Shown piece after piece: positions 9,000 through 63,754 of a DNA stretch of 64,000 nucleotides. The translations under genes were made by a program, and so were the position numbers. This stretch comes from a virus. The number at the start of each line of letters is the position of its first letter. The stretch's first letter is position 1. The notes under the pieces are model-generated. The model did no database searches. It saw only the letters and a program-made list of their open reading frames with translations, and was not told the origin of the DNA. The stretch spans positions 1 through 64,000 of IMG/VR virus record IMGVR_UViG_3300017763_000005. One strand, 5' to 3'.

Positions 9000-9495
9000 C
9001 CCATGCGCATCCAGTTAAGCCACCAGCTTGTAAACCTTTTAAGGTTCTTAAAACTTCATTATGGTTTCTACCTGTATCCAAAGCGTTTACCGATACGTGT
9101 TGTACTGTTCTATCTCTATCAAAGATAAACGTAGCTCTGTATGGTACACCTTCTTCTTCATTAACAATACCAAGTTTATGACTTAAACCAAGTCCACAAT
9201 CAGCTGCAAGAGTATGCTGGATATTACCAATCAATTGATTGTCTTCTTTCCACGCTAACTTACAAAACTCATTGTCTCCACTGATACCAATTACATTTGC
9301 ATGATCTACTAGGTTATCAAAACCTGCGATCTCTGTTGGACAGATAAATGTAAAGTCCTTTGGATAGAAGTAGACTATTGACCAATCATGTTTGAGTGGT
9401 GTATAACCTTCTTCAACCGTTACTCTCACAAATTCATTTTTTTCGTTAATTCCTTGCAGTGAGAATGCAGGGAACTTATCTCCTACTGATAACAT
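8974..9495 (-). CDS. ahpC: 2-Cys peroxiredoxin (AhpC)
   Basis: YFYPKDFTFICPTE peroxidatic motif, GRN..EVLR, C-terminal CAW. Confidence 0.95.
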   Translation of the reverse strand: MLSVGDKFPAFSLQGINEKNEFVRVTVEEGYTPLKHDWSIVYFYPKDFTFICPTEIAGFDNLVDHANVIGISGDNEFCKLAWKEDNQLIGNIQHTLAADCGLGLSHKLGIVNEEEGVPYRATFIFDRDRTVQHVSVNALDTGRNHNEVLRTLKGLQAGGLTGCAWDEGEDFVG

Positions 9496-9503
9496 ATTTC
9501 CTC

Positions 9504-10625
9504 CTAGAATACTCTCATTAATATACAGTCAGCGTTAATTCTGCCTGTAGGGCTATCAATTTTAGTTGTTATTGTCTCCCACACTTTCTCAATTTGCTTT
9601 TCAGTCTTATTAAGAATGAGTGGTAGTATCTCATCAGGTTTACGTAATGTAGCCTGTTTCGAATCTTTATCAAAGTTTTTAATCGTGGTACCTGATATTT
9701 CAAATCCACTTACAGCTGAAGTCACATACTCAATAAGCTTTCTATTCTTAGTATTATAGATATATAGCTTATGTTTAGTTGGTATGAGTATTGGATTAAT
9801 TGATGTCAATTTAGAATCAATATCTTCTTGGCAATACTTAAGCTTAGCAACTTGAGTATCAGATGACTTAGGCTTTTTAGTCCTAGGTATACGAGTAGCT
9901 TTAAAAGAATCTCTTAATCGTTCAAGATCAGCAAACACATCTTCAAACTGCTTTAAGATCTTTTTCTTTTCGCCTTTTGAATAATGTGAATAAGCTTCTA
10001 CACACTGATCGCATGTTCTTTCATAAGCTTCTTTGATTAAATCATACTCTTGTTCGAGCATGCCTTTGAATATATTTATTGCATTACCTTTCAATCCATG
10101 TAATTTAAATCGATTGTATGCACTGAATTTCTTTGTAAAGTCTCCATTTAACCAGCCTTCAACAATATCTTCATCCCATTCAGCGTAAATAGTATCAAGT
10201 ACTTTTAAACGAGTTCTTTCAGCTGGAGTTATAACTTTGACTTCAGCCTTTTTCTTTTCTTCAATCTTTTTAAGAGTAAGACCTTCTTTATAAAGTTCAT
10301 CAATAAAGTCTTTACACTTTTGAATCATTACATCATCGTATTGCCAGCCTCTATAATAGAGTTTGATAATCTTATTGACTTTCATAAACTTCCAATCTTT
10401 AAGTCTTTTCAATACTGATACTTTCTTTTTATCATATCCCATTACATCAGCAGCAAACTGATATGTTGTTGGCATATAATCTTTAGTCTTATAAAAGTAA
10501 TTATACCAGTGAGCACCGTGAGTCCAAGCTGAGCTTGTAAAATCAGATTCTGATGTATAGATTGGTTCTGGTCCAAGATACTTATCGTCTAAACTTGGTC
10601 CTCTTTTCTTTTTTCTTGCTGCCAT
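9504..10625 (-). CDS. Conserved T4-like hypothetical protein
   Basis: 373 aa ORF with its own promoter and RBS; C-terminal TLRKP...GRINADCIL. Confidence 0.7.
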   Translation of the reverse strand: MAARKKKRGPSLDDKYLGPEPIYTSESDFTSSAWTHGAHWYNYFYKTKDYMPTTYQFAADVMGYDKKKVSVLKRLKDWKFMKVNKIIKLYYRGWQYDDVMIQKCKDFIDELYKEGLTLKKIEEKKKAEVKVITPAERTRLKVLDTIYAEWDEDIVEGWLNGDFTKKFSAYNRFKLHGLKGNAINIFKGMLEQEYDLIKEAYERTCDQCVEAYSHYSKGEKKKILKQFEDVFADLERLRDSFKATRIPRTKKPKSSDTQVAKLKYCQEDIDSKLTSINPILIPTKHKLYIYNTKNRKLIEYVTSAVSGFEISGTTIKNFDKDSKQATLRKPDEILPLILNKTEKQIEKVWETITTKIDSPTGRINADCILMRVF

Positions 10626-42791: not shown

Positions 42792-44138
42792 TTATCCTCT
42801 TACTTTAGCGGCTAGATCTTTATCAGCTTTGCCCCATGTTCCTTTTGATTTTGTTACGAATGAATTGACTCTTGCCAATCCCCATTGAACAGCTGTTGTT
42901 CCAGGTCTATGACCTGTTTTCCATGCTGCTACTCCTCTATTGAATACTTGTCTTAATATACCTAAAGGCATACCAGATTTATCAGCTTTTTTCTTAAGTG
43001 CTGCATCTGATTTACCTTCATGTACATTAAAGTCTTCAAATGTTAATTCACCAAACATTTGATGATATTTTTTTGTATGTGTAGATGGTTTTGTTTTTGC
43101 TGTTGCATCACCTGGAGCTGGTTTTGTAGATTTCTTTTTAAAATGAGCATCTCTTTTTTGCTTTGTAGATTTAGAAAGACCTGCATGATATTTGGCTGGT
43201 TGTGAACCTTTTTTGTGACCGATATCAGGATCTTCTCTATTCTCATCTTTCTTTTTCTTCTTTTCGCCAGGTGTTTCATTTTTAAGATAATTTGTATATG
43301 TTTTAGTACCTATTTCATTATATTCTAATAATTCTATAGCATCTAACCAGTATCTTTTCTTACCTAATATACCTTCTACTATTACATAATTAGTTCCACA
43401 AACTGAAATAGTACCTACTTCATTTGTTTCTTTAATTACAATTTCGTCTCCAACTTGGAATGAGTTACCTGCAACATATTCCTCTCTTGACTCAGATACA
43501 GTTGGTAATTCAACATGTTGTCTAAAAGTACTTTCTAATTTTAATCCCATACCTTTACGTACAGCATTAAAAAGATCTGTTGGATGAAACCTAGCTGGAA
43601 CTCCTTTCGCAAATCCAGCTAGATCATTTTGTTGAGCGGCCATACGCATTTTTGAAGCAGACATACCAGTTGCACCTTCGGCATCTGGATCTCTTTCTCC
43701 TGCGCTTACTACATTTATTGCACCTTCGAAATTATAAAAACCGTGTTTAGCTTTTTCACCATTATATTTGTTTAATAATATATCAAACTCTCTTACTCTA
43801 TCGCTACCAGCGACAAGTGTTATTTTGGTAAAGCCTTGATCGTAAAGTTTTACTGCAATATCCAGTACTGTACGAACACCTTTATCGGCCATTATATTTC
43901 GTGCATGTTTAGGAAACATTTTACGAAGGAATTTAATTTTATCTTTAAATTGAAGAGGATTCTTTTTAGCATCTACTGATTGTGATGCATAGATTCTATA
44001 TGAACCACCGCGTGATTGTTTTTTCAGTGCTTCAAATAATTTTTCATGACCAATCGTCGGAGGATTAAATCTCCCAAATACGAATGATACTTCTTTTGTG
44101 TTTTCAGTTAAATAATCACTGAATGATTTTATCGACAT
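42792..44138 (-). CDS. HIGH-superfamily nucleotidyltransferase (cytidyltransferase-like) with C-terminal accessory domains
   Basis: FGRFNPPTIGHEKL, KNPL, VAGSDR, SAGERDPD, MSASKMR. Confidence 0.85.
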   Translation of the reverse strand: MSIKSFSDYLTENTKEVSFVFGRFNPPTIGHEKLFEALKKQSRGGSYRIYASQSVDAKKNPLQFKDKIKFLRKMFPKHARNIMADKGVRTVLDIAVKLYDQGFTKITLVAGSDRVREFDILLNKYNGEKAKHGFYNFEGAINVVSAGERDPDAEGATGMSASKMRMAAQQNDLAGFAKGVPARFHPTDLFNAVRKGMGLKLESTFRQHVELPTVSESREEYVAGNSFQVGDEIVIKETNEVGTISVCGTNYVIVEGILGKKRYWLDAIELLEYNEIGTKTYTNYLKNETPGEKKKKKDENREDPDIGHKKGSQPAKYHAGLSKSTKQKRDAHFKKKSTKPAPGDATAKTKPSTHTKKYHQMFGELTFEDFNVHEGKSDAALKKKADKSGMPLGILRQVFNRGVAAWKTGHRPGTTAVQWGLARVNSFVTKSKGTWGKADKDLAAKVRG

Positions 44139-44157
44139 TTATATCCTCGGTTCCCAT

Positions 44158-45399
44158 TTAGCCTGGATTGTCCCAGCCTTTAATAATATCTTTGCTAAAG
44201 TTGTTGGTAGAAAATTCCATTCTATCAACTAGTTTAACTGCTCCACCTTCCATACGATCTATAGCAACAAAACCTTCTGGGTTGGTCACTTTAAATCCGG
44301 ACGTTGTTTTAACAAACGTTCCAATTTTATTAAGTTTGTTTAGTTTATTTATAATAATTAATTTGCTGTCTACTAATAAATTTTGTAAATCAAACACATT
44401 TTGTAAGTTTTTTATATTTTTTTTATCAAAAAACTTTAATAATGCATCTCTTTGTTTTGCTTTATTATCTTTACCCTTTGTAGACGATAATTTATCGATT
44501 TGTTTTGCATATCTATCTTGAACAAACATTATTAAACCAGTAGCATGTTTTTTAGTATTAGTAATTCTTTGACCTTCTCTTACTTTTTTATTGTTATATA
44601 CATTAATAACAAGATTTAATTCTTTATTTGATTCTATTTCTTTTAATGTAGAAGCTGATATCTTTTTAAATATCTTACCAGCATCTGATAATTTCTTTGA
44701 TACTTCTAAGCTATCTTGTTTAGTGAGTGTTGCAGTACCACTTAGGTCTTTTAAAGTAGCATCTTGCATCCATACATTTTTATTTGGTTTTAATTTAGAA
44801 ACAATATCTTTACCAAACTCTGCTTTCATAGTTTCAAATGTTGCTCCACTATATGATGTATGCCATACTATACCTACTTTAGCTGCTGCAATCTCTTTTG
44901 CTAAGGGCGTACCTGTAGGTACAGCATAAAGAATAGTATTAGGATGGAAAGTAATATGTTGGACTCCATCAATCTTCTCCTTTTTTAGATCACTTGAGTC
45001 AAACATAAAGTCACCTTGTATTACATCTTTAATGCCAAGACTTTTTAGATTATCAAATGCAATCTTTAATTTTTTATTTAAATCACCTGATGTATCAGCA
45101 TCTATATCTGCATGATTCTTATATACTTTAGGATCAGCATTAAAGATACCTTTTTTTGCTACAAAGAATTGTCCATCTCGTGGATCTTCTCCAGCGAATA
45201 AGGCGGGGGCTCCGTCCCACTTGACAGTAACGTCCACAGGTGCTTTTGCGTTACCGCTCAACATATCCCTCAGTGATCTGAGCGCTAGGATTGCCTGGCG
45301 AGCCCCCTTAACTCCACCGTCAATGACAAGATCTTCAATATGTGTCATATGAGTATTCTTGCCTGCGGCCTCTGTTAAGTAATTTGTTAAACTTATCAT
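44158..45399 (-). CDS. Conserved T4-like protein with covalent nucleotidyltransferase (ligase-like) motifs
   Basis: TVKWDG, IQGDFMF, PEGFV, VKLVDR. Confidence 0.6.
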   Translation of the reverse strand: MISLTNYLTEAAGKNTHMTHIEDLVIDGGVKGARQAILALRSLRDMLSGNAKAPVDVTVKWDGAPALFAGEDPRDGQFFVAKKGIFNADPKVYKNHADIDADTSGDLNKKLKIAFDNLKSLGIKDVIQGDFMFDSSDLKKEKIDGVQHITFHPNTILYAVPTGTPLAKEIAAAKVGIVWHTSYSGATFETMKAEFGKDIVSKLKPNKNVWMQDATLKDLSGTATLTKQDSLEVSKKLSDAGKIFKKISASTLKEIESNKELNLVINVYNNKKVREGQRITNTKKHATGLIMFVQDRYAKQIDKLSSTKGKDNKAKQRDALLKFFDKKNIKNLQNVFDLQNLLVDSKLIIINKLNKLNKIGTFVKTTSGFKVTNPEGFVAIDRMEGGAVKLVDRMEFSTNNFSKDIIKGWDNPG

Positions 45400-50970: not shown

Positions 50971-51237
50971 TTATCTTCTCCTGCCTTTTTGAGGCTTCAT
51001 GTATGCATCATTGATGCGTTGTAATTTACGAGTTCTACTAATAGCTTCGGCTTTTTTGCGTTGCCTTCTTTGAGCTGGTTTTTCGTAGTACTGGCGTTCG
51101 CGTACTTCTTGTACGATGCCTGCTTTCTCACAGGCTTTTTTAAATTTGCGAAGTCCTACATCAAAAGGCATTTCCTTTTGAGGACGTTTATCTCGCGGGT
51201 TTCGATTGGGCCTTGGCCTTAAATCAATACTGGGCAT
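50971..51237 (-). CDS. rpsU: Ribosomal protein bS21
   Basis: [37 protein letters not shown]. Confidence 0.92.
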
Positions 51238-51269: not shown

Positions 51270-51298
51270 ATTATACCATAAAATCAGTGAGTTGTAAA
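51270..51298 (-). promoter_or_regulatory. Early promoter for rpsU-uvsX-gp41
   Basis: GTTTACA-17-TATAAT. Confidence 0.8.
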
Positions 51299-52458
51299 CT
51301 GTTTTTTTCATATTCATAGGTTCTTTTTTTATTGTCTTGAACTAAGAATTGAGTATCTACTAACTCAAGGTTATTATTTAAATATTCTTTAACCATACGT
51401 GCTGGATGTTCAGCTGTCGTTACAGGTACATTTTGACATATATGATTTAAAGATCTTTTTGCATCAAGCAATACAAAGTTAAATGGTAACTTCATAAGCG
51501 ATAAAGCTTCTCTTACTGTTAAGTAACGATCTTCATCTGGATGTGTTAAGCAAGTTGGCATATGTCCAACAAAAGCTCCTATTTTATCTTTAGGAATCTC
51601 TGTTGTTTTTCTCATGATATTACCACCCGCTTTAAGTTTATGATATTGTCTATCGCATTTCTTTGCTACATTCTCAAAACCGTTTGCTCTCATCCATTTA
51701 GCAACTTCTTTGTAGGTTGTTCTTTCTTCTATGTAATCCATAGGGTTAGTTGTCTTTTCTATTTTATTTTGAAATTCACTGTGGGATATACCACCTTCCA
51801 ACTCCTCTAATACATATTTATAGTATGGCTCTTCTGAAGGAGTCTTATCGTTACAAAGTATTTGACTCATTGGATCATTATCGCAGCGTTTTACTTCTCT
51901 TATATCATCAGCAATCATAGTTGGTTTTTCTAATACATAATCAAATAATGGTACTTGATCTCCTTTCCAAAAGAAATAAAATGTACGATCTCTTACTTGA
52001 CTTAATCCATGTAATATTGATTTTGTTTTAAAGATACTAAATGTATATCCATGTTCTTCTCCAATCTTTCTTAATCTTCGAACTACTGGTTCTCCCATCT
52101 TACTTGCTAACCTAGGAGCATTCTCTCCCCAAAAGACTTTTGGTTGAACCTCACCAAGTACATATTCTGCAGACTTATACATCCATTCGTTCATAGGATT
52201 ATTACTCGAAGCAGATGGACTAAGTGAGCTGAGCCCTGCACATGGGCATACAGTATTAATCACATCAACTTTTTCTGTGTAACTCGCTCCCTCTGAGAGG
52301 TTCAAATATGGGACACTATGGTTGTAATAATTGTTTAAGTGACTTTCATTAGCTTGAAATCCCTCAAACGTTAAGAAATACTTTGGCTTTTCTCCAAAGA
52401 CATTTTCCATTGCTATTGTTTCTCCACCTATTAGTGGTACTATACTTGCGTAACTCAT
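51271..52458 (-). CDS. C5 cytosine methyltransferase-like protein with degenerate SAM-binding motif I
   Basis: CPCAGLS (IV), GENAP (VI), QVRDRTF (VIII), RYLTVREA (IX), QNVP (X); motif I reads VPLIGG. Confidence 0.8.
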   Translation of the reverse strand: MSYASIVPLIGGETIAMENVFGEKPKYFLTFEGFQANESHLNNYYNHSVPYLNLSEGASYTEKVDVINTVCPCAGLSSLSPSASSNNPMNEWMYKSAEYVLGEVQPKVFWGENAPRLASKMGEPVVRRLRKIGEEHGYTFSIFKTKSILHGLSQVRDRTFYFFWKGDQVPLFDYVLEKPTMIADDIREVKRCDNDPMSQILCNDKTPSEEPYYKYVLEELEGGISHSEFQNKIEKTTNPMDYIEERTTYKEVAKWMRANGFENVAKKCDRQYHKLKAGGNIMRKTTEIPKDKIGAFVGHMPTCLTHPDEDRYLTVREALSLMKLPFNFVLLDAKRSLNHICQNVPVTTAEHPARMVKEYLNNNLELVDTQFLVQDNKKRTYEYEKNSLQLTDFMV

Positions 52459-53435
52459 CCGAAAAACTCCTCTAATCCTTGAGGTTCCATTCCATTCCAA
52501 TGTGGATAGAACTCTCTTGATAAATGTATTGATTGTGGCTTCTCCATATATTTAAAATCGAGCTTGCCTTCTTGATTGTATAAGTACTCAGTCCATCTTA
52601 TAATACCATATTGTTTTTCAATATAGTCATTAAACTGATTTCTCCAATCGTTTCTTTCTTTCCATGAACCATAAAATGGTTGACCTTTATAGAAACCTGA
52701 TTGTGGTATTCTTCTACTGACATCTTCAATTGGAAGCAACTCATAAATTTTAGCTTTATACTTACTTGCTTCTTCAATATATCTATCAGCCAAATCTTCT
52801 ACCTTTTGTTCTAATCTTATTGCATGATGACGAACATCAATATTACCAAAATAACATTCAAGCTCGTCGTATTCATGTGGTATGAATGTATCAAATCCTT
52901 CATTGATAGCTCCATTCAAAGTTTTAAATGGAACACTGTTGACTGTCCAGCCTGGACGATACATACATATTGAATGACTATCGCCAATAACTAGTTTACG
53001 AGTTGGATTGATATAGTCTACTCTTTCAGCTTCATTAAACATTCTTTCTAGATTTTTTAAGTCTACATCATGCCATTCTGGCTGAACCTCTTTTTTAGCC
53101 GATTCCAGTTTTGATTTAACCATTTCGTGGTACGGCGGGAAGTCGATTCCAATGGAATAGACTTTACCTTTGAACTGAGAAAAATTAACAGTGTTCTTAA
53201 CATAAGGAAAACCGTATACGCCACCAAACATATTAATTCCACCACTCCAATCAGTACCATGATAGACCCAAAGGTTATCATAAATATTATGGTCTTCAAT
53301 TTCTCCACCGTAGTTAACATCGCAGTTTCCATATTTCTCCTTTATCATATCTCCATACATTACTCCAGCAGCACCTCTATGAGAACCTGGTCTCTTTGCT
53401 ATTGGAATAAATGGACAATTAATTATATTTTTCAT
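52455..53435 (-). CDS. Protein with C-terminal SGNH-hydrolase-like domain
   Basis: VIGDSH, YFGNIDVR, SIHL blocks. Confidence 0.6.
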   Translation of the reverse strand: MKNIINCPFIPIAKRPGSHRGAAGVMYGDMIKEKYGNCDVNYGGEIEDHNIYDNLWVYHGTDWSGGINMFGGVYGFPYVKNTVNFSQFKGKVYSIGIDFPPYHEMVKSKLESAKKEVQPEWHDVDLKNLERMFNEAERVDYINPTRKLVIGDSHSICMYRPGWTVNSVPFKTLNGAINEGFDTFIPHEYDELECYFGNIDVRHHAIRLEQKVEDLADRYIEEASKYKAKIYELLPIEDVSRRIPQSGFYKGQPFYGSWKERNDWRNQFNDYIEKQYGIIRWTEYLYNQEGKLDFKYMEKPQSIHLSREFYPHWNGMEPQGLEEFFG

Positions 53436-54496
53436 TCAAAAAACTCCGTGAGTGTATTAGTTTTTTGTACTCTTGCTACACGTCTACGTGCGCAAGCTTT
53501 TTCATCTTCTCTTATTTGAAGGTATACTCCAAACTGACATGATAGAACTTCTGTTCCATAATACTTAAGAGAATCTTGTTCGTATTGAAACAATTTAGTT
53601 CCATCTTTCTTATCGATATTAAATGCTTCAGGATGAAAGACCACATCTTTTGTAAGTCCAATCTCATCTGCATTTTCTCTCATAAAATAAATTGCTTCAT
53701 CATATAGTTTCTTTGGAGCATCAGGCCACATAAGTTCTATTGTATAAACTGCTCCTGGTCCAGGCGCTACAAATCTTTGATCATGATGATACCTCATTTG
53801 TGGTAATACTGAAGATGAAGCTGCTCCGTGAAATCCGTAGTAATGTCCTATACCAGGCTGTTCTCTTAAAAGATTATATATCTCTGACATATGATCACAG
53901 AGTTGCATACGTTCTAAGAATCCAGTATCTCTAAATGAAGATACCCATTCACATACATCAACTGGATGAAACTTTCTATTTGGTTCGTTATACTTTCTTC
54001 TACAATGGTTTCTACCAGCTGTTTGAATAGAAGTATGTAATTCAGTCGTTCCCCATATTGGTTGTTTATTTGCAATTGCTTTATCTAAATTCTGTCTTAT
54101 TGATTGAATATAATCTTTGTCTTCATCTGCAAATCTATCAAAGTCTACAAATACATTATCTTCTCCTGAAGCTAAGAAGTGAACTCCTCTCCCTCCATAA
54201 AAATGAGATATAAAAGTATTACCAACAATATTCATTATTGAAGTATCTAAACTTGCAATCTCTTGACCAATAAATCTCATACGATCATCAAGTGTAATTG
54301 TTGGATGAAAATATTCTACATCTTCTCCAAGACCAAAGTCTGCATCTCCATGTCGATTAACAGCTTCATATGTTTCATCGATATAACCAAGTTGAATACC
54401 TGATCTTTGATTGACTTTATATAAGAACCAATTGAACTCTTTCATGAGTTCTTTATCGTAGTTCCACCAATCGTAATTATATTTAATACTTGACAC
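53432..54496 (-). CDS. Divergent aGPT-Pplase1 / 5-hmdU DNA kinase-like helical protein
   Basis: LDDRMRFI, HhH-like PGIGHYYG, VAPGPGA, EVLSCQFGVY. Confidence 0.6.
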   Translation of the reverse strand: MSSIKYNYDWWNYDKELMKEFNWFLYKVNQRSGIQLGYIDETYEAVNRHGDADFGLGEDVEYFHPTITLDDRMRFIGQEIASLDTSIMNIVGNTFISHFYGGRGVHFLASGEDNVFVDFDRFADEDKDYIQSIRQNLDKAIANKQPIWGTTELHTSIQTAGRNHCRRKYNEPNRKFHPVDVCEWVSSFRDTGFLERMQLCDHMSEIYNLLREQPGIGHYYGFHGAASSSVLPQMRYHHDQRFVAPGPGAVYTIELMWPDAPKKLYDEAIYFMRENADEIGLTKDVVFHPEAFNIDKKDGTKLFQYEQDSLKYYGTEVLSCQFGVYLQIREDEKACARRRVARVQKTNTLTEFFE

Positions 54497-54863
54497 GTTC
54501 CTCGTTATCTCTTTTACAATGTACTATTGAGACGTTTGGACATCTCTTTCTAATTTCTTTAATTTGTATAGGATCATCTTCAAAATGCATTTGAACTTCT
54601 ATACCAAGATCTTTTAACATATTAATCATTTGACCTTTAAAAATACCAGAAGCTTTTCTTCCATAAATTGAATTATCATAACGGTCAAGTGGATTCATAT
54701 ATACGGTATTATATATGCCTCTTGAATGTAGCATTTTTTCTGTAGCTTCTCTATCATGATACGGCCGCCCCGTAAGAATTATGTCATTCTCACAGGGTCT
54801 TACGCCGGTGACGTCTTCGCCAAAATAGATCACACCATCAATGTCAAAACTATTAACTTTCAT
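54483..54863 (-). CDS. Minimal HAD phosphatase
   Basis: SFDIDGV, LTGR, K, HFEDD. Confidence 0.85.
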   Translation of the reverse strand: MKVNSFDIDGVIYFGEDVTGVRPCENDIILTGRPYHDREATEKMLHSRGIYNTVYMNPLDRYDNSIYGRKASGIFKGQMINMLKDLGIEVQMHFEDDPIQIKEIRKRCPNVSIVHCKRDNEERVKY

Positions 54864-56145
54864 AATCAGTTTGACCAGCTTGGAAGGTGAAAGGCAAGTC
54901 TTTAGCCTTTGGTCTATTTTCCTTGAGCTGAGGTTTAGTCATGTCTGTAATGACTCTTCTCGCTAAGGCGTCACATTCAAATTTAGCATCCTCAGTTTTT
55001 AACTGTACTGGAGGAGTCTTTTGAGTCCAAGCTGATGGTCCTCTTAGATATCCAACAATACCCATTTCTGATGCTACCTTACAAAATCTAATTGCTGAAA
55101 CAACAACTCCACCAGAGTTTGGCGAATCTTGAACTGAAAGTCTTGCTGACATTTCGTATCTTGCTCCTGCAAATCCATAAGCAACCATATCAAAGTTTGC
55201 TATCTTATTATCAGATGAAATAAAATCTCCACCTGGTTTTTGTTGAACAGTAAGAGATGGACCAGCAAATAAAGTCATACCTGCTGTAGACTCATCTCTT
55301 ACAATATTCTGACCTTTAAGAACATTTTCTTTTGAGATATGTTTGTTTTTTAATCTATATTGTTTAGCCATATTTAAGAAGTCAGTATTAGCTGTTCTTC
55401 CTGTTCTAATATGTTCTTGACCTTGTGTAGATCCAGCTGCCATATTCATTTGAATATGTTGAGTAATCATAAGTCCTGAATCAAGCATTGCACCTTGTAA
55501 AACTTCTGACATTCTTGAAGCTCCCCAAGCTGATCTCATATCTGATCCAATGAAACTTAAACCAGCATCTATAAATCTTTGTTCAACTTCTAATGCATCA
55601 TCAGTTGAAATTAATGTAGGAATACAATTAACAAAATGTACTCCAGCTGCAACTGCGACATCAATCCAATATCTTGATGCTTCTTCTGATCCTACTGGTA
55701 AGTAATTAATAAGTACGTCTACATTATGATACTGTAATAACTCAACTGTTCTATCGAACGATTCAGCTGGAACAGCTCCATTTACAAATGTGACTTCATC
55801 TGGATAGTCATGCATATGTGGTGCTATCCCGTCCATTTCTGGAGCTGAATAGACCATTGCGTCTTTATGTACGCATGAACTATTTGATGTAGTAGTAATT
55901 TTATCGACATGATCCATAGCACAATTAGGTTGAGCTCGTAAAGCTTTTGCTAATTTCTTATTTACTTTTCTCTTATCGATATCAAATCCAACGACAAATT
56001 CTATATCGTGTACTGAATATCCTCCGATATCTTCATACATAAGACCTATTTTATCTTCTGGATTTTCGTTATAATATTGAATTCCCTCTACGAGAGACTT
56101 CGCACATGATCCGACACCTATGATGCCTGCTTTTATTTTTGACAT
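54853..56145 (-). CDS. ino1: myo-Inositol-1-phosphate synthase homolog
   Basis: GIIGVGSCAKSLVEG, INYLPVGSEEA, FVNCIP, TDFLNM, DSPNSGG, KTPP. Confidence 0.92.
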   Translation of the reverse strand: MSKIKAGIIGVGSCAKSLVEGIQYYNENPEDKIGLMYEDIGGYSVHDIEFVVGFDIDKRKVNKKLAKALRAQPNCAMDHVDKITTTSNSSCVHKDAMVYSAPEMDGIAPHMHDYPDEVTFVNGAVPAESFDRTVELLQYHNVDVLINYLPVGSEEASRYWIDVAVAAGVHFVNCIPTLISTDDALEVEQRFIDAGLSFIGSDMRSAWGASRMSEVLQGAMLDSGLMITQHIQMNMAAGSTQGQEHIRTGRTANTDFLNMAKQYRLKNKHISKENVLKGQNIVRDESTAGMTLFAGPSLTVQQKPGGDFISSDNKIANFDMVAYGFAGARYEMSARLSVQDSPNSGGVVVSAIRFCKVASEMGIVGYLRGPSAWTQKTPPVQLKTEDAKFECDALARRVITDMTKPQLKENRPKAKDLPFTFQAGQTDYES

Positions 56146-56213
56146 AATTTTTCTCCTTGTTTATATCAGTTTATTTGAGTGAGAAATTTGGCTGGGAGAC
56201 CCAGAGTAGCTCA

Positions 56214-56519
56214 CTATATACTATTAGTTATAACACTTATCAAGCCACTTCCTAAGATGAGACATGCTGCTGTGTTTAAAATTATCAACGCTCTATCTTT
56301 CCAGATAAGAGCTACTACTAACCAACCGAAACATCCTATTAAGGAAAAGGTTTGATCGTAGATCGCAAGATCAGGACTTGATCTTACTGCCATTGCCAAT
56401 AAAAGAATAGCAGATGCTACCCATTTTATATACCAATCGATTGTATACTTAGGAGTTGCACTCTTAAATATACGTTTTGAATTCTCTAATTCTTTTGCGT
56501 CAAACTTTGATTGACTCAT
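56214..56519 (-). CDS. Small three-TM membrane protein
   Basis: WYIKWVAS, GWLVVALIWKDRALIILN. Confidence 0.7.
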   Translation of the reverse strand: MSQSKFDAKELENSKRIFKSATPKYTIDWYIKWVASAILLLAMAVRSSPDLAIYDQTFSLIGCFGWLVVALIWKDRALIILNTAACLILGSGLISVITNSI

Positions 56520-56997
56520 ATTCTATACCTGCTTCTTCAAATAATTGTTCTGTTAATGTATCGCTTTTATTCCAACGATCTGGAGTATCTTGAGAGAAAG
56601 CCATTACTCTTTTGACACCGACTTGGATAAGACCTTTTGCGCATTCGCTACAGGTTGGTAATCCGTGTACATATACTGTCGAGCCTTTTAAAGATACTCC
56701 ATTTGCTGCTGCATTGTAAATACAGTTCATTTCTGCATGTACTACATATTTGTATTTTTCTTCTCTGTCATTATATCTTTCTTCAGTATCTTCAATACCT
56801 CGTGGAAACCCATTATAGCCTTGAGCTATGATTTCTCCATTTTCTCCAATAGCAACTGCACCAATTTGTCGGCTTGGATCTTTTGACCACGTGCCAAAGT
56901 GCCATGCTAGAGCGAGATATCTCGTATCCCAATTACTTGATAAGGTCAAAGTGTCTTTCATATACGTGTAAGTTTTGTACTTGCCAGTGAATATCAC
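56500..56997 (-). CDS. cd: dCMP deaminase (true start probably downstream of 56997)
   Basis: WSKDPSRQIGAV, GYNGFPRG, HAEMN, TCSECAK. Confidence 0.93.
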   Translation of the reverse strand: MIFTGKYKTYTYMKDTLTLSSNWDTRYLALAWHFGTWSKDPSRQIGAVAIGENGEIIAQGYNGFPRGIEDTEERYNDREEKYKYVVHAEMNCIYNAAANGVSLKGSTVYVHGLPTCSECAKGLIQVGVKRVMAFSQDTPDRWNKSDTLTEQLFEEAGIEYESIKV

Positions 56998-57613
56998 CTA
57001 AGCCAATATGACCTAGTACTTTTTCTTTATTAAGATCTGATGCTAAGTTAACGAGTACTTGTTTTTGCCAAGCATAATCGTTTTTATAACCAAACACTAC
57101 ATCATTAGATCTCATTTGAACTACACAATGTAGTTCTCTATTTCTAATATAATACGTTACTGCATTAGTACAAATAAAATCGTTTTTACCATTCTCATCA
57201 AATTCAAACCAGATGCTTGGTCTTTGATAGACCATACTTGCTCGTCTTGAATCAATATTGTATGTAAGTTCATTTAATACTTGTTGATATTGACAATGAA
57301 ACTTAGGACTATAAATGAGATGACCATAATTAGAATTGATTTCACCATGAATATTAGCAGTTGATTGCCAAGCTTTTGGTGGTTCTTTATCTCCTTCAGG
57401 ATAGATATCAGTTATATTCGTTGATTCAGATTGATACCAATCGAGTTCAGCTTTAATATATTCTCTGTTTGGAGTACCAAAGATTGCTGGTTTATCAGCA
57501 AGAAATGATGCACCAATAATTTCTACAGTCTTACATCCAGTTTTATCTGTTGTAAACTGTTTTGATTCAAGAGCATTAACAAATATCTCTGCGATATCTT
57601 TAGTCGTCTGCAT
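56933..57613 (-). CDS. gp42: dCMP hydroxymethylase (T4 gp42-type thymidylate synthase homolog)
   Basis: GEINSNYG, DSRRA, DFICTN catalytic Cys, MRSNDVVFGYKNDYAWQ with the dCMP-specifying Asp, LHVYERHF. Confidence 0.88.
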   Translation of the reverse strand: MQTTKDIAEIFVNALESKQFTTDKTGCKTVEIIGASFLADKPAIFGTPNREYIKAELDWYQSESTNITDIYPEGDKEPPKAWQSTANIHGEINSNYGHLIYSPKFHCQYQQVLNELTYNIDSRRASMVYQRPSIWFEFDENGKNDFICTNAVTYYIRNRELHCVVQMRSNDVVFGYKNDYAWQKQVLVNLASDLNKEKVLGHIGLGDIHWQVQNLHVYERHFDLIK

Positions 57614-57929
57614 TTTGAATCCTGTTATTGAACATATCTCTATTTGGATCTTGGCCTTCCATTTTACCACGAGCATAAGCAACTGCAAAAGAACAATAGT
57701 TAATCATGTCTTTATAAGTATCTTCAATGCTTTCGAAGTTTGGTTCATCGGTTGATTCAAGCAATGATGTTGCTCGCATAATTTTACCAAGAATGATATC
57801 ATGAATAGTATCAATGCCGCGTCTATAATGCATTGCTTGTACTACTGTAGATTCAGAGCTTTGGTAGTCTTGAGATTTTTTAGTTTGTAGTTCTGCACAT
57901 TCTTGCAGGACTCTTAGGCTTTCTTTCAT
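57600..57929 (-). CDS. Small helical nucleotide-modification-associated protein (MazG/dNTPase-like fold)
   Basis: LQTKKSQDY, K..R, ESIEDTYKDMINY. Confidence 0.7.
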   Translation of the reverse strand: MKESLRVLQECAELQTKKSQDYQSSESTVVQAMHYRRGIDTIHDIILGKIMRATSLLESTDEPNFESIEDTYKDMINYCSFAVAYARGKMEGQDPNRDMFNNRIQNADD

Positions 57930-57957: not shown

Positions 57958-57986
57958 ATTATACCATACTTTAGCGTAAATGTAAA
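57958..57986 (-). promoter_or_regulatory. Early promoter heading the DNA-modification operon
   Basis: GTTTACA-17-TATAAT. Confidence 0.8.
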
Positions 57987-59433: not shown

Positions 59434-60347
59434 ATATTATTTTTAAACACGAATTCAATAGCTCGTGCAGCCTCCTTTTCTAAATCACGTTTTGAATACC
59501 AACCACCTGTATCAAGATCTAAGTCTCTACAAATGTACTCAATCTCTTTAGGAGTAATTGGATATCCTTTACTCATAGCATTACCTGCTGTTGTTAGCAT
59601 GATTTGATACATCTTAGAGTACCAACCAGTACCAGTAATACCTTTATATTCATCAATCTGTTTTTTGTTTACAAATGGACAATCACGATATGATGTCCAA
59701 CTAAAGTTAGTATTATTTAATTCATTGCGTTTTCTTTCAAGTAAAGCTTTTTGTATTGCTTCAGGAAAACGATCGAACATTGTTTGATTAGGTTTGACGT
59801 ATGGATACTTTTCCATAAGGTCATTTGGATTCATAATATCTCCATCATGAGAGAATATGAAGTTGAAACTGTTTTTATATTTAGCAGGAACATAATACAT
59901 TCTGCTTAAGTCTTTGGTTTGAGCATCAGCAATATCGCCAATCTCTTTATTTAAAGCATACCAAAAATGCTTAATATCATCGGTATCTACATTGCATGTC
60001 AATGGAAATACTAAACGAAACTTTGGAGATTCAACTGTAGATGAAGCTGTTGAATAACAAACATAACGATACTTATCATACTTTGATTCGATATCTTTCA
60101 TATCTCCTTCATAGTCATCAATATCAAGAATACCAAAGCCACCCCAACCTACAACATTATCGTTTGCACGAGTAGTATCAGGTTGATAAATGGCTGGACT
60201 TAAAAGAGGAGCATCCTTCTTTGTAGGATACTTTGTAGATTCTGATAGCTTATACAGGATAGCCTCGAACTCGTCGAAGCTAGTATAGTCCATACGTTTA
60301 TCTGTTTTATTATCGTATATACTATCGAATATCGTTAAACTTACCAT
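59430..60347 (-). CDS. Primase-polymerase (AEP/PrimPol)-like protein
   Basis: RANDNV, ILDIDD, YSTASS...PKFRLVFPL, D..TKDLSRMYYVP; helical C-terminal domain. Confidence 0.7.
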   Translation of the reverse strand: MVSLTIFDSIYDNKTDKRMDYTSFDEFEAILYKLSESTKYPTKKDAPLLSPAIYQPDTTRANDNVVGWGGFGILDIDDYEGDMKDIESKYDKYRYVCYSTASSTVESPKFRLVFPLTCNVDTDDIKHFWYALNKEIGDIADAQTKDLSRMYYVPAKYKNSFNFIFSHDGDIMNPNDLMEKYPYVKPNQTMFDRFPEAIQKALLERKRNELNNTNFSWTSYRDCPFVNKKQIDEYKGITGTGWYSKMYQIMLTTAGNAMSKGYPITPKEIEYICRDLDLDTGGWYSKRDLEKEAARAIEFVFKNNI

Positions 60348-60735
60348 GATTGTCTTTGTGACTTGGTGCCTCCCAATCTTCAGGTTTAATTAAGTCTGGT
60401 AATCCAAGTGGATTAGGTCTTTCTGGTTTTACGCCGACTTGTTTATTCATATTTGCTTTAAGTACTTCATCCCATGCTTTATATGGATTAATTCCAAAAG
60501 CATCTAGTGTACCAATTGCTACAACACAAAGATCGATAAGACCATCAACTATTTCTTCTGCATCAGTACTTATAAGTGCTGCTTCAGTTTCATCAAGCTC
60601 TTCTCTTAAGAAGTCAACTCTAAATTGTAAGTATGTACGAAGTTTATCTGGATTTTCTTTGTTTTCTTCCATCCATTTCTTTACACCATACTTATCATGC
60701 ATGATTGCAATATCTCTTACCCAATCAAAACTCAT
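60322..60735 (-). CDS. MazG-like/PRA-PH family dNTP pyrophosphatase
   Basis: LREELDE, EEIVDGLIDL, WDEVLKANMNK. Confidence 0.85.
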   Translation of the reverse strand: MSFDWVRDIAIMHDKYGVKKWMEENKENPDKLRTYLQFRVDFLREELDETEAALISTDAEEIVDGLIDLCVVAIGTLDAFGINPYKAWDEVLKANMNKQVGVKPERPNPLGLPDLIKPEDWEAPSHKDNHGKFNDIR

Positions 60736-61222: not shown

Positions 61223-63754
61223 TTATCCAAAAAAATCCTCAAGGCTTGCGACTTCTTTTGAGTTCCAGCCAACTGCATCCAATATTGGTTCAATTGGATC
61301 GAGGAAAGTTTTTTGAAATTGTATCTCATGATCAATATATTTTCTTAAGCCAAACTCTTCAGGAAGATAGTCTGGAAAAGCAATTACATTTTCATGAATT
61401 GAATTTGGTTGACGAAGATATAAGAACTTAATCTTTTCGCCATTATTGATTGGTTCATATTTCTTTTTAAGTTGCATATCTTCTACAAGTTTGTTATATA
61501 GAATAGAACCACGAACATGAATAGGTGTACCTTTTTTATAGAGAGTATTTCTATCCTGCCATTTGCGAACTTGAGTTACGCCTCTTGGAAAGGCAATCTC
61601 GTCTGGTTCAAGCGTTTTAAAATAGTTTTTGAATTGTTCGATTGCTTGTTGAACTGATGACTCATCTTCTTTCATGATAACGTGAAAGATCTTTTTAAGA
61701 GCTTCACGACATGGAGCTGGTGTAGAAGACTTAATAGCTTCAATACCCATAATTTTGAGTTTTGGTTCAGCATATCTTACGCCTTCGTTGTCATGTACAT
61801 TCATAATATATCGTTTCTTTGCAGTCCAAAGAGCACGATCAGCAATTGCTTCACGTTTCATGACCATACGATTATCTACACCGCCTAATATATCATAGAG
61901 TTCAGCATAAGACTTTTCAAGCTCTGGTTCCAAAGCATCTTGGCAAACTTTATCTAAGAAATCGATTGGATTGTTTGGTTGTACCTTTTTGACGAGATCG
62001 TCTAAGCTAACATACAACGAGTCGGTGTCGATTGCAACGATATAATCTTTCCAGTCTCTGTTTTGGAGCACTCGATTGAGGTAGGAGTTAAGCGCATATT
62101 CGGCCCATCGTATTGTAAGTTGTCCGGTGAGGGTAATTGCTTCTGCGATTCGTTGGTCAAAAAAGCGAAAGTAGCGATTCCCCATAGCACCATACAAGCT
62201 ATTAAGGAGAATCTTAATCGACATTTGTCTGTTTTCTGCGATTGCAATATCTCTTTCGATTCGATACATTTCTTGTTTATCATTTTTATCTACCTTTTGT
62301 AATTCTTTTTGAGCATCAATCATTTGTTGCTTGATTTCTACACGTTCTTTATACATCTCATCGATAATAAATGGAACAATACCTTGTCGATCAGTTCGAA
62401 AATATTGGCCATTTGCAGCAAGAGCTTTACCACGATTGTCAGGACGAGTAGATTTAGTAAGAACATTTTCAATATCAAACTGAGTAATCTCTCCATTGGC
62501 AATCGTTTCTGGCGACATGTTGTATTGCATAATGATTGATGGATATAGTGAGTTAAGATCAAACGATACAATATTGTCATGTATTCCTACATGAGGATCT
62601 TTTACAAACCCGCCAGGATAAGCTGACTTTGTTTTATCTTCGATAAATGGAACAACGATATTGTTTGCAAACAGTTTACGATATATAATCGTATCCCATA
62701 TCAATGTTGTACCAAACGTGTCATTATAGTTTACGCCACCTTTATATGCCATTGTCATGCAAAGTGTAATTAATCCAAGCTTATCTTCGATACGATCTAC
62801 AAGCTCAACGTCTTTGATATTATAGTCAATAAACTTTTGATGATTATGTTTGTAAAGAGTATGAAGATTAGAATACTCTTCGTATGAGAGTTTCTTTTCG
62901 CCAAGTACAACATGAGCAATATGATCAAGTTTATACGACTCTTGTGGACCATATGAATAACCAAACTTTTTAAATAAGTCAAGATAATCTAATTGAGATA
63001 TACCTTTAAGCTCATAAGCAGTTTGAGTTCTACCCATCTTAGTTATTTCTTGTCTGTCAACCATACCCCAAGGACTTAGCCTTTTGACATATGATTCGCC
63101 AAGCATACGATTAATACGATTGACAAGATATGGAATATCAAAGAACCTTGTATTCCAGCCAGTAACAACGTCTGGACTATATTGTTGAGAAGACCAATGA
63201 GTAATAAAGTTAATAAGCAAATCGTCTTCACGATCAAACTTACGATATACAACCATGTGATCTTTCATGTATGATTGTTCAGTGTCATAGTCGCCAAGTC
63301 CCCATACGTAATATGTTCCACCAATATTACTTTTCATTGCAATCGATATAACTTTATGATCAGCCTTTTCTGGCTCAGGGAATCCATCATCGGATGCGAC
63401 TTCGATATCGATTGTGGTTACGTTGATTTTATTACGATTGAATTCAACTTCACCTGGGTAATAGTCATTGATAAAAGCAGGAATATACTTTGTATTTCCA
63501 TAGATTGTTTTACCTGAGACTCCTTTGTTTGCAGTAACGTATTCGTTAGCTGCTCTCATAGATTCGAATCTCTTACCAGCATTAGCTACGCCGACAGGAG
63601 TTCCATCTAGAGCTTTCCAATTTGTTTTTAGATTTGTGGATGTAAAAAGGATTGGTTCGTATTTGATTTTCTTTTCGATTCTTCGACCATGATCATATCC
63701 TCGTAAAAGAATTTGATTGCCATATCGAGAAACGTTAGTATAGAATTGCAACAT
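61223..63754 (-). CDS. gp43: Family B DNA polymerase gp43
   Basis: DIEV exonuclease I, FDLNSLYPSII, KILLNSLYG, IDTDS, KKRY, C-terminal SLEDFF clamp-binding peptide. Confidence 0.98.
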   Translation of the reverse strand: MLQFYTNVSRYGNQILLRGYDHGRRIEKKIKYEPILFTSTNLKTNWKALDGTPVGVANAGKRFESMRAANEYVTANKGVSGKTIYGNTKYIPAFINDYYPGEVEFNRNKINVTTIDIEVASDDGFPEPEKADHKVISIAMKSNIGGTYYVWGLGDYDTEQSYMKDHMVVYRKFDREDDLLINFITHWSSQQYSPDVVTGWNTRFFDIPYLVNRINRMLGESYVKRLSPWGMVDRQEITKMGRTQTAYELKGISQLDYLDLFKKFGYSYGPQESYKLDHIAHVVLGEKKLSYEEYSNLHTLYKHNHQKFIDYNIKDVELVDRIEDKLGLITLCMTMAYKGGVNYNDTFGTTLIWDTIIYRKLFANNIVVPFIEDKTKSAYPGGFVKDPHVGIHDNIVSFDLNSLYPSIIMQYNMSPETIANGEITQFDIENVLTKSTRPDNRGKALAANGQYFRTDRQGIVPFIIDEMYKERVEIKQQMIDAQKELQKVDKNDKQEMYRIERDIAIAENRQMSIKILLNSLYGAMGNRYFRFFDQRIAEAITLTGQLTIRWAEYALNSYLNRVLQNRDWKDYIVAIDTDSLYVSLDDLVKKVQPNNPIDFLDKVCQDALEPELEKSYAELYDILGGVDNRMVMKREAIADRALWTAKKRYIMNVHDNEGVRYAEPKLKIMGIEAIKSSTPAPCREALKKIFHVIMKEDESSVQQAIEQFKNYFKTLEPDEIAFPRGVTQVRKWQDRNTLYKKGTPIHVRGSILYNKLVEDMQLKKKYEPINNGEKIKFLYLRQPNSIHENVIAFPDYLPEEFGLRKYIDHEIQFQKTFLDPIEPILDAVGWNSKEVASLEDFFG

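Follow-up and report, generated by a model that had tools for sequence, protein, structure and literature searches.

The window analysed here, a stretch of 64,000 nucleotides (positions 1 to 64,000 of IMG/VR record IMGVR_UViG_3300017763_000005), belongs to the 97.6-kb record of a T4-like marine myovirus that encodes a family B DNA polymerase, a primase, a gp41-type helicase, UvsX and ribosomal protein S21. On its minus strand, at 51271-52458, lies one gene whose translation, 395 amino acids long, has the signature of the DNA cytosine-C5 methyltransferase fold. This gene, referred to below as the methyltransferase-like (MT-like) gene, retains the residues of covalent catalysis and has lost the usual signature of the cofactor site. 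What such an enzyme does in a phage whose cytosines probably carry a C5 substituent already is the subject of this report.

The protein and its conserved motifs

The ATG at 52458 is taken as the real start, rather than the TTG at 52500 from which a program-made open reading frame (ORF) begins farther out, because it shares the overlap GG-ATGA with the stop of the gene upstream and is the first codon position in all homologues. The following features are referred to throughout (all on the minus strand).

52423-52443, minus strand: motif I variant I6-V-P-L-I-G-G12, replacing FxGxGG (translation, family alignment)
52240-52245, minus strand: motif IV, P72-C73, with the catalytic cysteine (aligned to the PC of HaeIII and HhaI)
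52117-52125, minus strand: motif VI, E112-N113-A114 (translation, family alignment)
51985-51999, minus strand: motif VIII, Q154-V-R156-D-R158 (translation, family alignment)
51508-51528, minus strand: motif IX, R311-Y-L-T-V-R-E317 (aligned to HaeIII motif IX)
51424-51435, minus strand: motif X variant, Q342-N343-V-P345, GN having become QN (aligned to GNAVPV of HaeIII)
51274-51300, minus strand: clamp-binding-like tail, S387-LQLTDFMV395 (resembles the end of the phage's own polymerase)

The protein matches the Pfam family PF00145 well above threshold (E 3.1e-14; 53.6 bits against a cut-off of 22), over profile positions 55-320 only, and the alignment is therefore one without motif I. The NCBIfam dcm model TIGR00675 scores 31.6 bits, under its cut-off of 100.65, and as a single sequence the protein finds among solved structures at best CmoX (8yf3, E 0.057), with HhaI at about 0.7. 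An AlphaFold2 model built from 40 relatives has a mean predicted local distance difference test score (pLDDT) of 94, and its top Foldseek matches are M.HhaI, M.HaeIII, MET1/DNMT1 and CmoX (E about 1e-13; template modelling scores 0.58/0.69). In the model the protein takes the class I methyltransferase fold, target-recognition insert included, of the DNA (cytosine-5)-methyltransferases (PF00145 / EC 2.1.1.37). Two features of the PF00145 class that bind S-adenosylmethionine (SAM), the FxGxGG loop of motif I and the acid of motif II, are both missing. A sequence-only reading of this gene, that the fold and catalytic motifs are kept while FxGxGG is absent, is thus confirmed motif by motif (IVPLIGG, PC, ENA, QVRDR, IX and X).

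How far these features extend beyond one phage can be judged from 132 full-length family representatives, 28-57% identical to the query, on which all residue frequencies given here rest. The catalytic residues are nearly constant (Cys73 in 99%, Glu112, Arg156 and Arg158 in 100%, Gln154 in 97%, N113 in 98%), as are those of motif IX (R311 in 93%, E317 in 95%). The variant motif I is kept just as closely, with P8 in 95%, L9 in 95%, G11 in 96% and G12 in 94%, giving the pattern (I/V)PL(I/V)GG. Motif X retains its Asn with the preceding Gly turned to Gln (Q342 in 97%, N343 in 94%). At position 30, directly after strand 2, where C5-methylases have a ribose-binding Glu, the family has Ser (88%) or Thr (9%; T30 here), the position being equated with Glu40 of HhaI through secondary structure, not superposed coordinates. 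Position 31 is aromatic in 92% and the next polar position is not conserved; helix B is marked by F34 (93%), N37 (93%) and D/E38 (96%); the motif III Asp is present in 65% and is Ser55 in the query. An additional C-terminal hairpin carries Asn376, conserved in 91%, and conservation is lowest in the target-recognition insert, with a mean top-residue frequency of 0.30. The residues presumed to line the pocket are L9, S/T30, Y/F31, N37, Q342, N343 and N376.

On this alignment the altered motif I is a trait of the family, not decay. A profile of the whole family matches HaeIII at 1.5e-15, in alignments that begin only at column 39-53, and a profile of the N-terminal 73 columns (38 sequences) searched against the PDB found no solved protein at E <= 10. 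Given the conserved variant motifs together with this lack of a structural match for the N-terminal profile, the N-terminal cofactor half has been rebuilt and then held under strong selection. The hydrophobic and aromatic positions that flank the adenine in M.HhaI stay hydrophobic or aromatic in the family, so an adenosine-type cofactor could still be accommodated. In comparison with the type II bacterial enzymes M.HhaI and M.HaeIII, then, the fold is the same and motifs IV, VI, VIII and IX and the Asn of motif X align and are conserved. Unlike them, the family has (I/V)PL(I/V)GG as motif I, no acid at the end of strand 2, QN rather than GN in motif X, the extra C-terminal hairpin and tail, and an N-terminal half that is unrecognizable by sequence; further, it is almost only viral and was not found in restriction-modification contexts.

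The operon and its hydroxymethylcytosine genes

Reading in the direction of transcription, the genes on the same strand are ordered DUF1599/Nmad1, gp42 homologue, dCMP deaminase, DUF6552, inositol-3-phosphate synthase, HAD-like, HMUDK_hel, SGNH-like and the MT-like gene. The overlap at ATGA and the promoter-like sites on either side suggest that the MT-like gene is the last of one operon; the gene for ribosomal protein S21, a core gene of pelagimyophages (PMC7029224), follows directly.

61223-63754, minus strand: family B DNA polymerase, ending ...SLEDFFG (domain match)
60322-60735, minus strand: MazG-like nucleotide pyrophosphohydrolase (PF01503; phrog_671)
57958-57986, minus strand: promoter-like site at the operon head, 11/12 matches, TG (consensus match only)
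56933-57688, minus strand: T4 gp42-type dCMP hydroxymethylase (PDB 1b5e family, E 1e-69; Asp kept in KNDYAW; ORF limits, the start probably lying further in)
56500-56997, minus strand: dCMP deaminase (PF00383; phrog_174)
56214-56519, minus strand: DUF6552 small protein (domain match)
54853-56145, minus strand: inositol-3-phosphate synthase homologue (PF01658; TIGR03450 E 6e-57, under its cut-off)
54483-54863, minus strand: 126-amino-acid HAD-type phosphatase-like protein, N-terminus ...DIDGV... (phrog_415 partial match; N-terminal sequence)
53432-54496, minus strand: 354-amino-acid protein with the HMUDK_hel domain only (PF18723, E 1.2e-10; no P-loop)
52455-53435, minus strand: 326-amino-acid protein with an SGNH/GDSL-like C-terminal domain (phrog_13881, phrog_17781), translationally coupled to the MT-like gene
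51270-51298, minus strand: promoter-like site at the 3' end of the MT-like gene, before S21 (consensus match only)
50971-51237: ribosomal protein S21 gene, directly after the MT-like gene, with its own promoter-like site

The gene set expected for near-full replacement of cytosine is present: an Asp-type gp42 homologue, a dCMP deaminase, and a MazG-like gene that lies between the polymerase and primase genes, at the site of T4 gene 56 (dCTPase), and has homologues 55-82% identical in 46 loci. Likewise, every one of the 33 thymidylate-synthase-like ORFs found with the family has Asp at the position of N177 of the E. coli enzyme, where the canonical ThyA paralogues in the same genomes have Asn. 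All five complete or near-complete genomes that carry the family have an Asp-type enzyme gene, S-TIM61 among them; the 'ThyA' annotated in this phage (L001, 5769-6605) reads PLD, not PFN, and probably makes 5-methyl- or 5-hydroxymethyl-dCMP rather than dTMP. A preprint from NEB (10.1101/2024.12.05.627091) describes co-localised Asp-type thymidylate synthase homologues, dCMP deaminases and PRA-PH domains as marking contigs of phages with modified cytosine, and the gene content of the present locus fits that marker. That the genome is hydroxymethylated at C5 of cytosine, as the first look at the sequence had it, is supported, though not proven, by the gp42-type Asp enzyme and by the MazG-like gene at the gene-56 site. 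The deaminase gene also stays joined to the hydroxymethylase gene in nearly all lineages. A preprint reports that some such deaminases prefer 5-substituted cytosine nucleotides; the enzyme could accordingly give 5-hydroxymethyl-dUMP, and part of the cassette might then act on 5-hydroxymethyluracil, cytosines staying free.

The genes between the hydroxymethylase and the MT-like gene form an inositol cassette in which no kinase for 5-hydroxymethylcytosine (hmC) is recognizable, the HMUDK_hel proteins having no Walker A motif. Atlas neighbours of the HMUDK_hel protein include the ADDT (amino-acid:DNA transferase) family, and as a putative ADDT relative it would be a more natural condensing enzyme than the MT-like protein. 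For the 326-amino-acid neighbour, an AlphaFold2 model (pLDDT 72.6) matches GDSL esterases in Foldseek at E 2.6e-6, with an invariant G-D-S-H. In T4 the order is 42, beta-gt, uvsX, 40, 41; here the cassette and the MT-like gene stand between the homologues of gene 42 and uvsX, the place in which T4 has its hmC-decorating enzyme. The beta-glucosyltransferase of T4 has another fold and another chemistry than the MT-like enzyme, and T4 has no C5-methyltransferase-like gene. Elsewhere in the window, at 42792-45399, a DUF6267 protein (E 9e-101) adjoins a cytidylyltransferase-like protein with a DUF5824 domain, a pair conserved downstream of the helicase in many relatives.

Several proteins of the locus end alike: SLEDFFG in the polymerase, GLEEFFG in the SGNH-like protein, TLTEFFE in the HMUDK_hel protein and SLQLTDFMV in the MT-like protein, with no such end in the two small-molecule enzymes of the cassette. 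Homologues of the SGNH-like and HMUDK_hel neighbours keep similar ends, and a terminal L-x-x-[FWY]-[FLMIWY] occurs in 34 of 128 family representatives, against 2.9% at random internal cuts. The L-x-x-F-(F/M) tail, which resembles the end of this phage's polymerase, recalls the established clients of the T4 and RB69 gp45 clamp (the C-terminal peptide of gp43). Unlike in those clients, the motif is present in about a quarter to a third of family members, and its binding has weak support from prediction. A gp45 candidate of 223 amino acids with a weak PF02916 match lies beyond the window, at about 67.3-68.0 kb of the record. Predicted in complex with it, the enzyme scored 0.44 against 0.00 for the best control, a pass that the predictor may owe to a like clamp-peptide complex that has already been solved. 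The runs had at least 77% of contacts in common and a partner pLDDT of at least 85. Of 80 solved complexes 58 pass the mark, as do 2 of 110 mismatched pairs; among scores of 0.60 or less, however, the passes are only 7 of those 80 together with both mismatches, and the calibration is rough in that the prediction had its own alignment and included SAM, which is not scored. We infer clamp binding on these grounds, and the tail speaks well, though short of proof, for an enzyme that works on DNA close to the replication fork.

Distribution and neighbourhoods of the family

The family is large. A word-index search returned 2,571 clusters at 90% identity, many of them drawn from Tara and further marine sets, and an exhaustive search of 50%-identity representatives gave 770 with E no higher than 1e-3, of which 252 reach 1e-30 or lower. 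Among prokaryotes, sampled as one genome for each of 185,579 species, there are only nine loci, all nine on contigs of metagenome-assembled genomes (MAGs) labelled Pacearchaeota, Clostridia, Bacteroidetes, Rhodobacteraceae and others; seven of the nine show a hydroxymethylase or tailoring-gene island, and these loci (L252-L260) probably come from phage contigs that were sorted into cellular bins. Nearly all members are viral, and around them no restriction-modification context was seen. The phage type itself is widespread, since at least half of the sampled words of 51271-57688 recur in contigs of 20 public marine or viral metagenome runs from at least 15 studies. A related-locus search with two single distant members (P0160, P0251) as queries found no loci.

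Among close relatives, 80 loci keep the gene, with enzymes 70-98% identical and, except in four, the same gene order. Those four are informative. In L036 (6625-10004) and L081, whose enzyme is 86% identical, the inositol cassette has given way to a cytidylyltransferase, an NAD-epimerase, an unknown protein and a UDP-galactopyranose mutase (Glf); in L065 (77% identical) a glycosyltransferase of the TET-associated type (TAGT) stands directly upstream in its place (9190-9999); and L056 (79% identical) is without the inositol cassette. The slot that separates the hydroxymethylase gene from the MT-like gene seems to be a hot spot at which DNA decorations are swapped.

More distant branches repeat the arrangement with other partners. 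At 29-31% identity, in phages of 150-218 kb, the gene follows a gp42-like gene and a deaminase gene at a distance of 3.5-5 kb (about 9 kb in L100), and annotated records show an NTP-transferase/APH-kinase fusion, or a kinase and a cytidylyltransferase, plus a protein of about 415 amino acids in between. A similar arrangement is found in the cultured Pseudoalteromonas phage vB_Psh_XG4, where two proteins resemble glycosyltransferases, though the matches are weak. A pattern scan added further lineages, including phages of 240-364 kb, in which the partner set is the protein of about 415 amino acids, TAGT, or the inositol/HMUDK_hel/SGNH set; across branches at 29-36% identity the partners are NTP-transferase/APH with a glycosyltransferase-like protein, TAGT, or the inositol set. 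The combination of inositol synthase, HMUDK_hel, SGNH-like and MT-like genes recurs at 26-43% identity in jumbo phages, and the module that includes the HAD gene (52455-56145) accompanies the MT-like gene in L207, L210, L212, L216, L219 and L221, phages of 290-360 kb among them. This inositol synthase/HAD/HMUDK_hel/SGNH module is a candidate for an undescribed pyrimidine hypermodification without a visible kinase. In most lineages down to 29% identity the MT-like gene is less than 10 kb from the hydroxymethylase gene; in some records it is 56-100 kb away.

These neighbourhoods bear directly on the sequence-only reading, which had proposed a C5-methyltransferase fold repurposed to condense the cyclitol, or another nucleophile, onto hmC or phospho-hmC. 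Its general point is supported insofar as the clade is almost only viral, has a rebuilt cofactor half and is tied to genes for C5-substituted dCMP, all of which makes a plain methylase role at least puzzling. The cyclitol part fares badly. A cyclitol-specific condensing role is unlikely because enzymes 77-86% identical occur in sister pelagimyophages without the inositol cassette (L065, L056, L036 and L081), and deep branches pair the enzyme with a nucleoside diphosphate (NDP)-sugar-type cassette and a glycosyltransferase-like protein. Nor does a phospho-hmC step find its enzyme, there being no visible kinase; the 354-residue 'HMUDK' protein consists of the helical domain only and has no Walker A motif.

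Possible functions of the enzyme

Literature searches found no published description of this family, and the two nearest published cases both differ from it in defining features. SpCmoX of Synechococcus phage S-B43 (PDB 8YF3; PMC12783734) is a C5-carboxymethyltransferase paired with CmoA, and the likeness lies in its being a phage enzyme of the C5-methyltransferase fold that transfers a non-methyl group. CmoX retains Phe25, Glu47 and Asp69 for the adenosine and has Arg350 in place of the motif X Asn (PMC12783734). A carboxymethyltransferase of this type was considered and rejected: N343 is kept, with no Arg, and CmoA (TIGR00740) was not found in this record or in five other family records. The TET-associated phage C5-methyltransferases (Burke et al. 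2021, PMC8256090) make 5-methylcytosine (5mC) for a TET dioxygenase and so start a cytosine hypermodification pathway beside glycosyltransferases that include TAGT. A methylase of that pathway was likewise rejected; this record and five more that carry the family, two of them complete, yielded no Tet_JBP domain (PF12851), and hmC here would come from the gp42-type nucleotide pathway.

The reading tentatively favoured, as somewhat the likeliest of several that each fall short of an even chance, is that of a fork-tethered enzyme completing the C5 modification of cytosines left unsubstituted. The C-terminal tail would dock the enzyme on the sliding clamp, so that it acts on newly copied phage DNA; a cytosine would be flipped out and attacked at C6 by Cys73 with the help of Glu112, Arg156 and Arg158, as in ordinary C5-methyltransferases; and a one-carbon group would be placed on C5 of those cytosines that had escaped replacement by hmC. 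The donor would sit in the rebuilt pocket. The default guess is SAM in a non-canonical pose, giving 5mC, though another donor giving hmC is conceivable; we infer the substrate (unsubstituted cytosine), the donor and the product alike. The presence of the enzyme is independent of the decorating cassette, and a general completion step is therefore the most likely role; with one and the same pocket alongside differing cassettes, a second substrate shared by all of these phages is to be expected. Several points weigh against this reading. Throughout the family, the three SAM determinants that C5-methyltransferases conserve best have each been altered (F to I/V and G to L in motif I, Glu to Ser/Thr in motif II), and a patch methylase would have no reason for a rebuilt pocket whose N-terminal profile matches nothing in the PDB. 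Residual cytosine may be very rare given the dCTPase-like gene, and T4 does without such an enzyme. Further, the conservation of the target-recognition insert gave no clue to a single target.

Only slightly less weight, and still a doubtful one, falls on an hmC-directed enzyme independent of SAM, in which Cys73 would add to C6 of hmC or activated hmC, the 5-substituent would leave, and a nucleophile bound in the pocket would add to the resulting exocyclic methylene. The Klimasauskas laboratory has reportedly coupled thiols and aldehydes at C5 or to hmC in vitro with C5-methyltransferases free of SAM. The strict linkage to Asp-type hydroxymethylase genes, the rebuilt cofactor half, an inositol cassette without a recognizable kinase to activate hmC, and the recurrence of the inositol synthase, HMUDK_hel, SGNH-like and MT-like set in jumbo phages would all be at home in such a scheme. 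However, the pocket is nearly invariant though the cassettes, and hence the groups to attach, differ; cassettes of the glycosyltransferase type need no such activation; close homologues of the enzyme do without any inositol genes; and an ADDT-like protein is already there for substitution chemistry. Taken more broadly, a natural SAM-independent enzyme that uses the Cys-C6 adduct beyond methylation, either to activate hmC (here placing inositol or a derivative on the 5-methylene) or to turn stray cytosine into hmC with a one-carbon group not from SAM, is a possibility that we would likewise call doubtful. An ordinary sequence-specific orphan C5-methyltransferase, dependent on SAM, odd in motif I and serving anti-restriction, with the hmC neighbours reflecting the usual clustering of DNA-metabolism genes, seems unlikely. 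The PF00145 score above cut-off, the retained Asn of motif X and a target-recognition insert that is least conserved, as in ordinary methylases, speak for it, and some active methylases, such as Dnmt3, also deviate in motif I. Against these stand the near absence from cellular genomes and the hydroxymethylase or tailoring context of seven of the nine loci labelled prokaryotic, the lack of any restriction-modification setting, the proximity to the hydroxymethylase gene in most lineages, and the dcm score far below its cut-off. Covalent chemistry without transfer is more improbable still: the enzyme might deaminate stray cytosine to uracil so that repair can re-insert hmC, take the hydroxymethyl group off, or hold cytosine-containing host DNA tightly or covalently, to give examples. 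C5-methyltransferases starved of SAM do deaminate cytosine, and intact catalytic residues beside an altered cofactor half would suit such uses; but the close conservation of the pocket speaks for a second substrate bound there, a tail of the clamp type would direct the enzyme to the DNA of the phage and not of the host, and no uracil-repair partner was seen in the operon. The remainder goes to something else.

Covalent chemistry kept intact beside a rebuilt cofactor half, in a family almost confined to phages that substitute C5 of cytosine, makes an ordinary methylase unlikely. The family is large and globally abundant in marine metagenomes, and occurs almost only where that position is already substituted. 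Phage pathways of DNA hypermodification count among the main sources both of new nucleic-acid chemistry and of epigenome-sequencing tools. Cultured carriers exist among S-TIM5-like cyanophages and in Pseudoalteromonas phage vB_Psh_XG4, which makes direct testing possible. If true, SAM-independent use of the adduct would be the first natural case of a chemistry seen so far only in vitro with SAM-starved methyltransferases. Whichever function the enzyme has, whether completion at the fork, activation of hmC or use of a new donor, it would be new.

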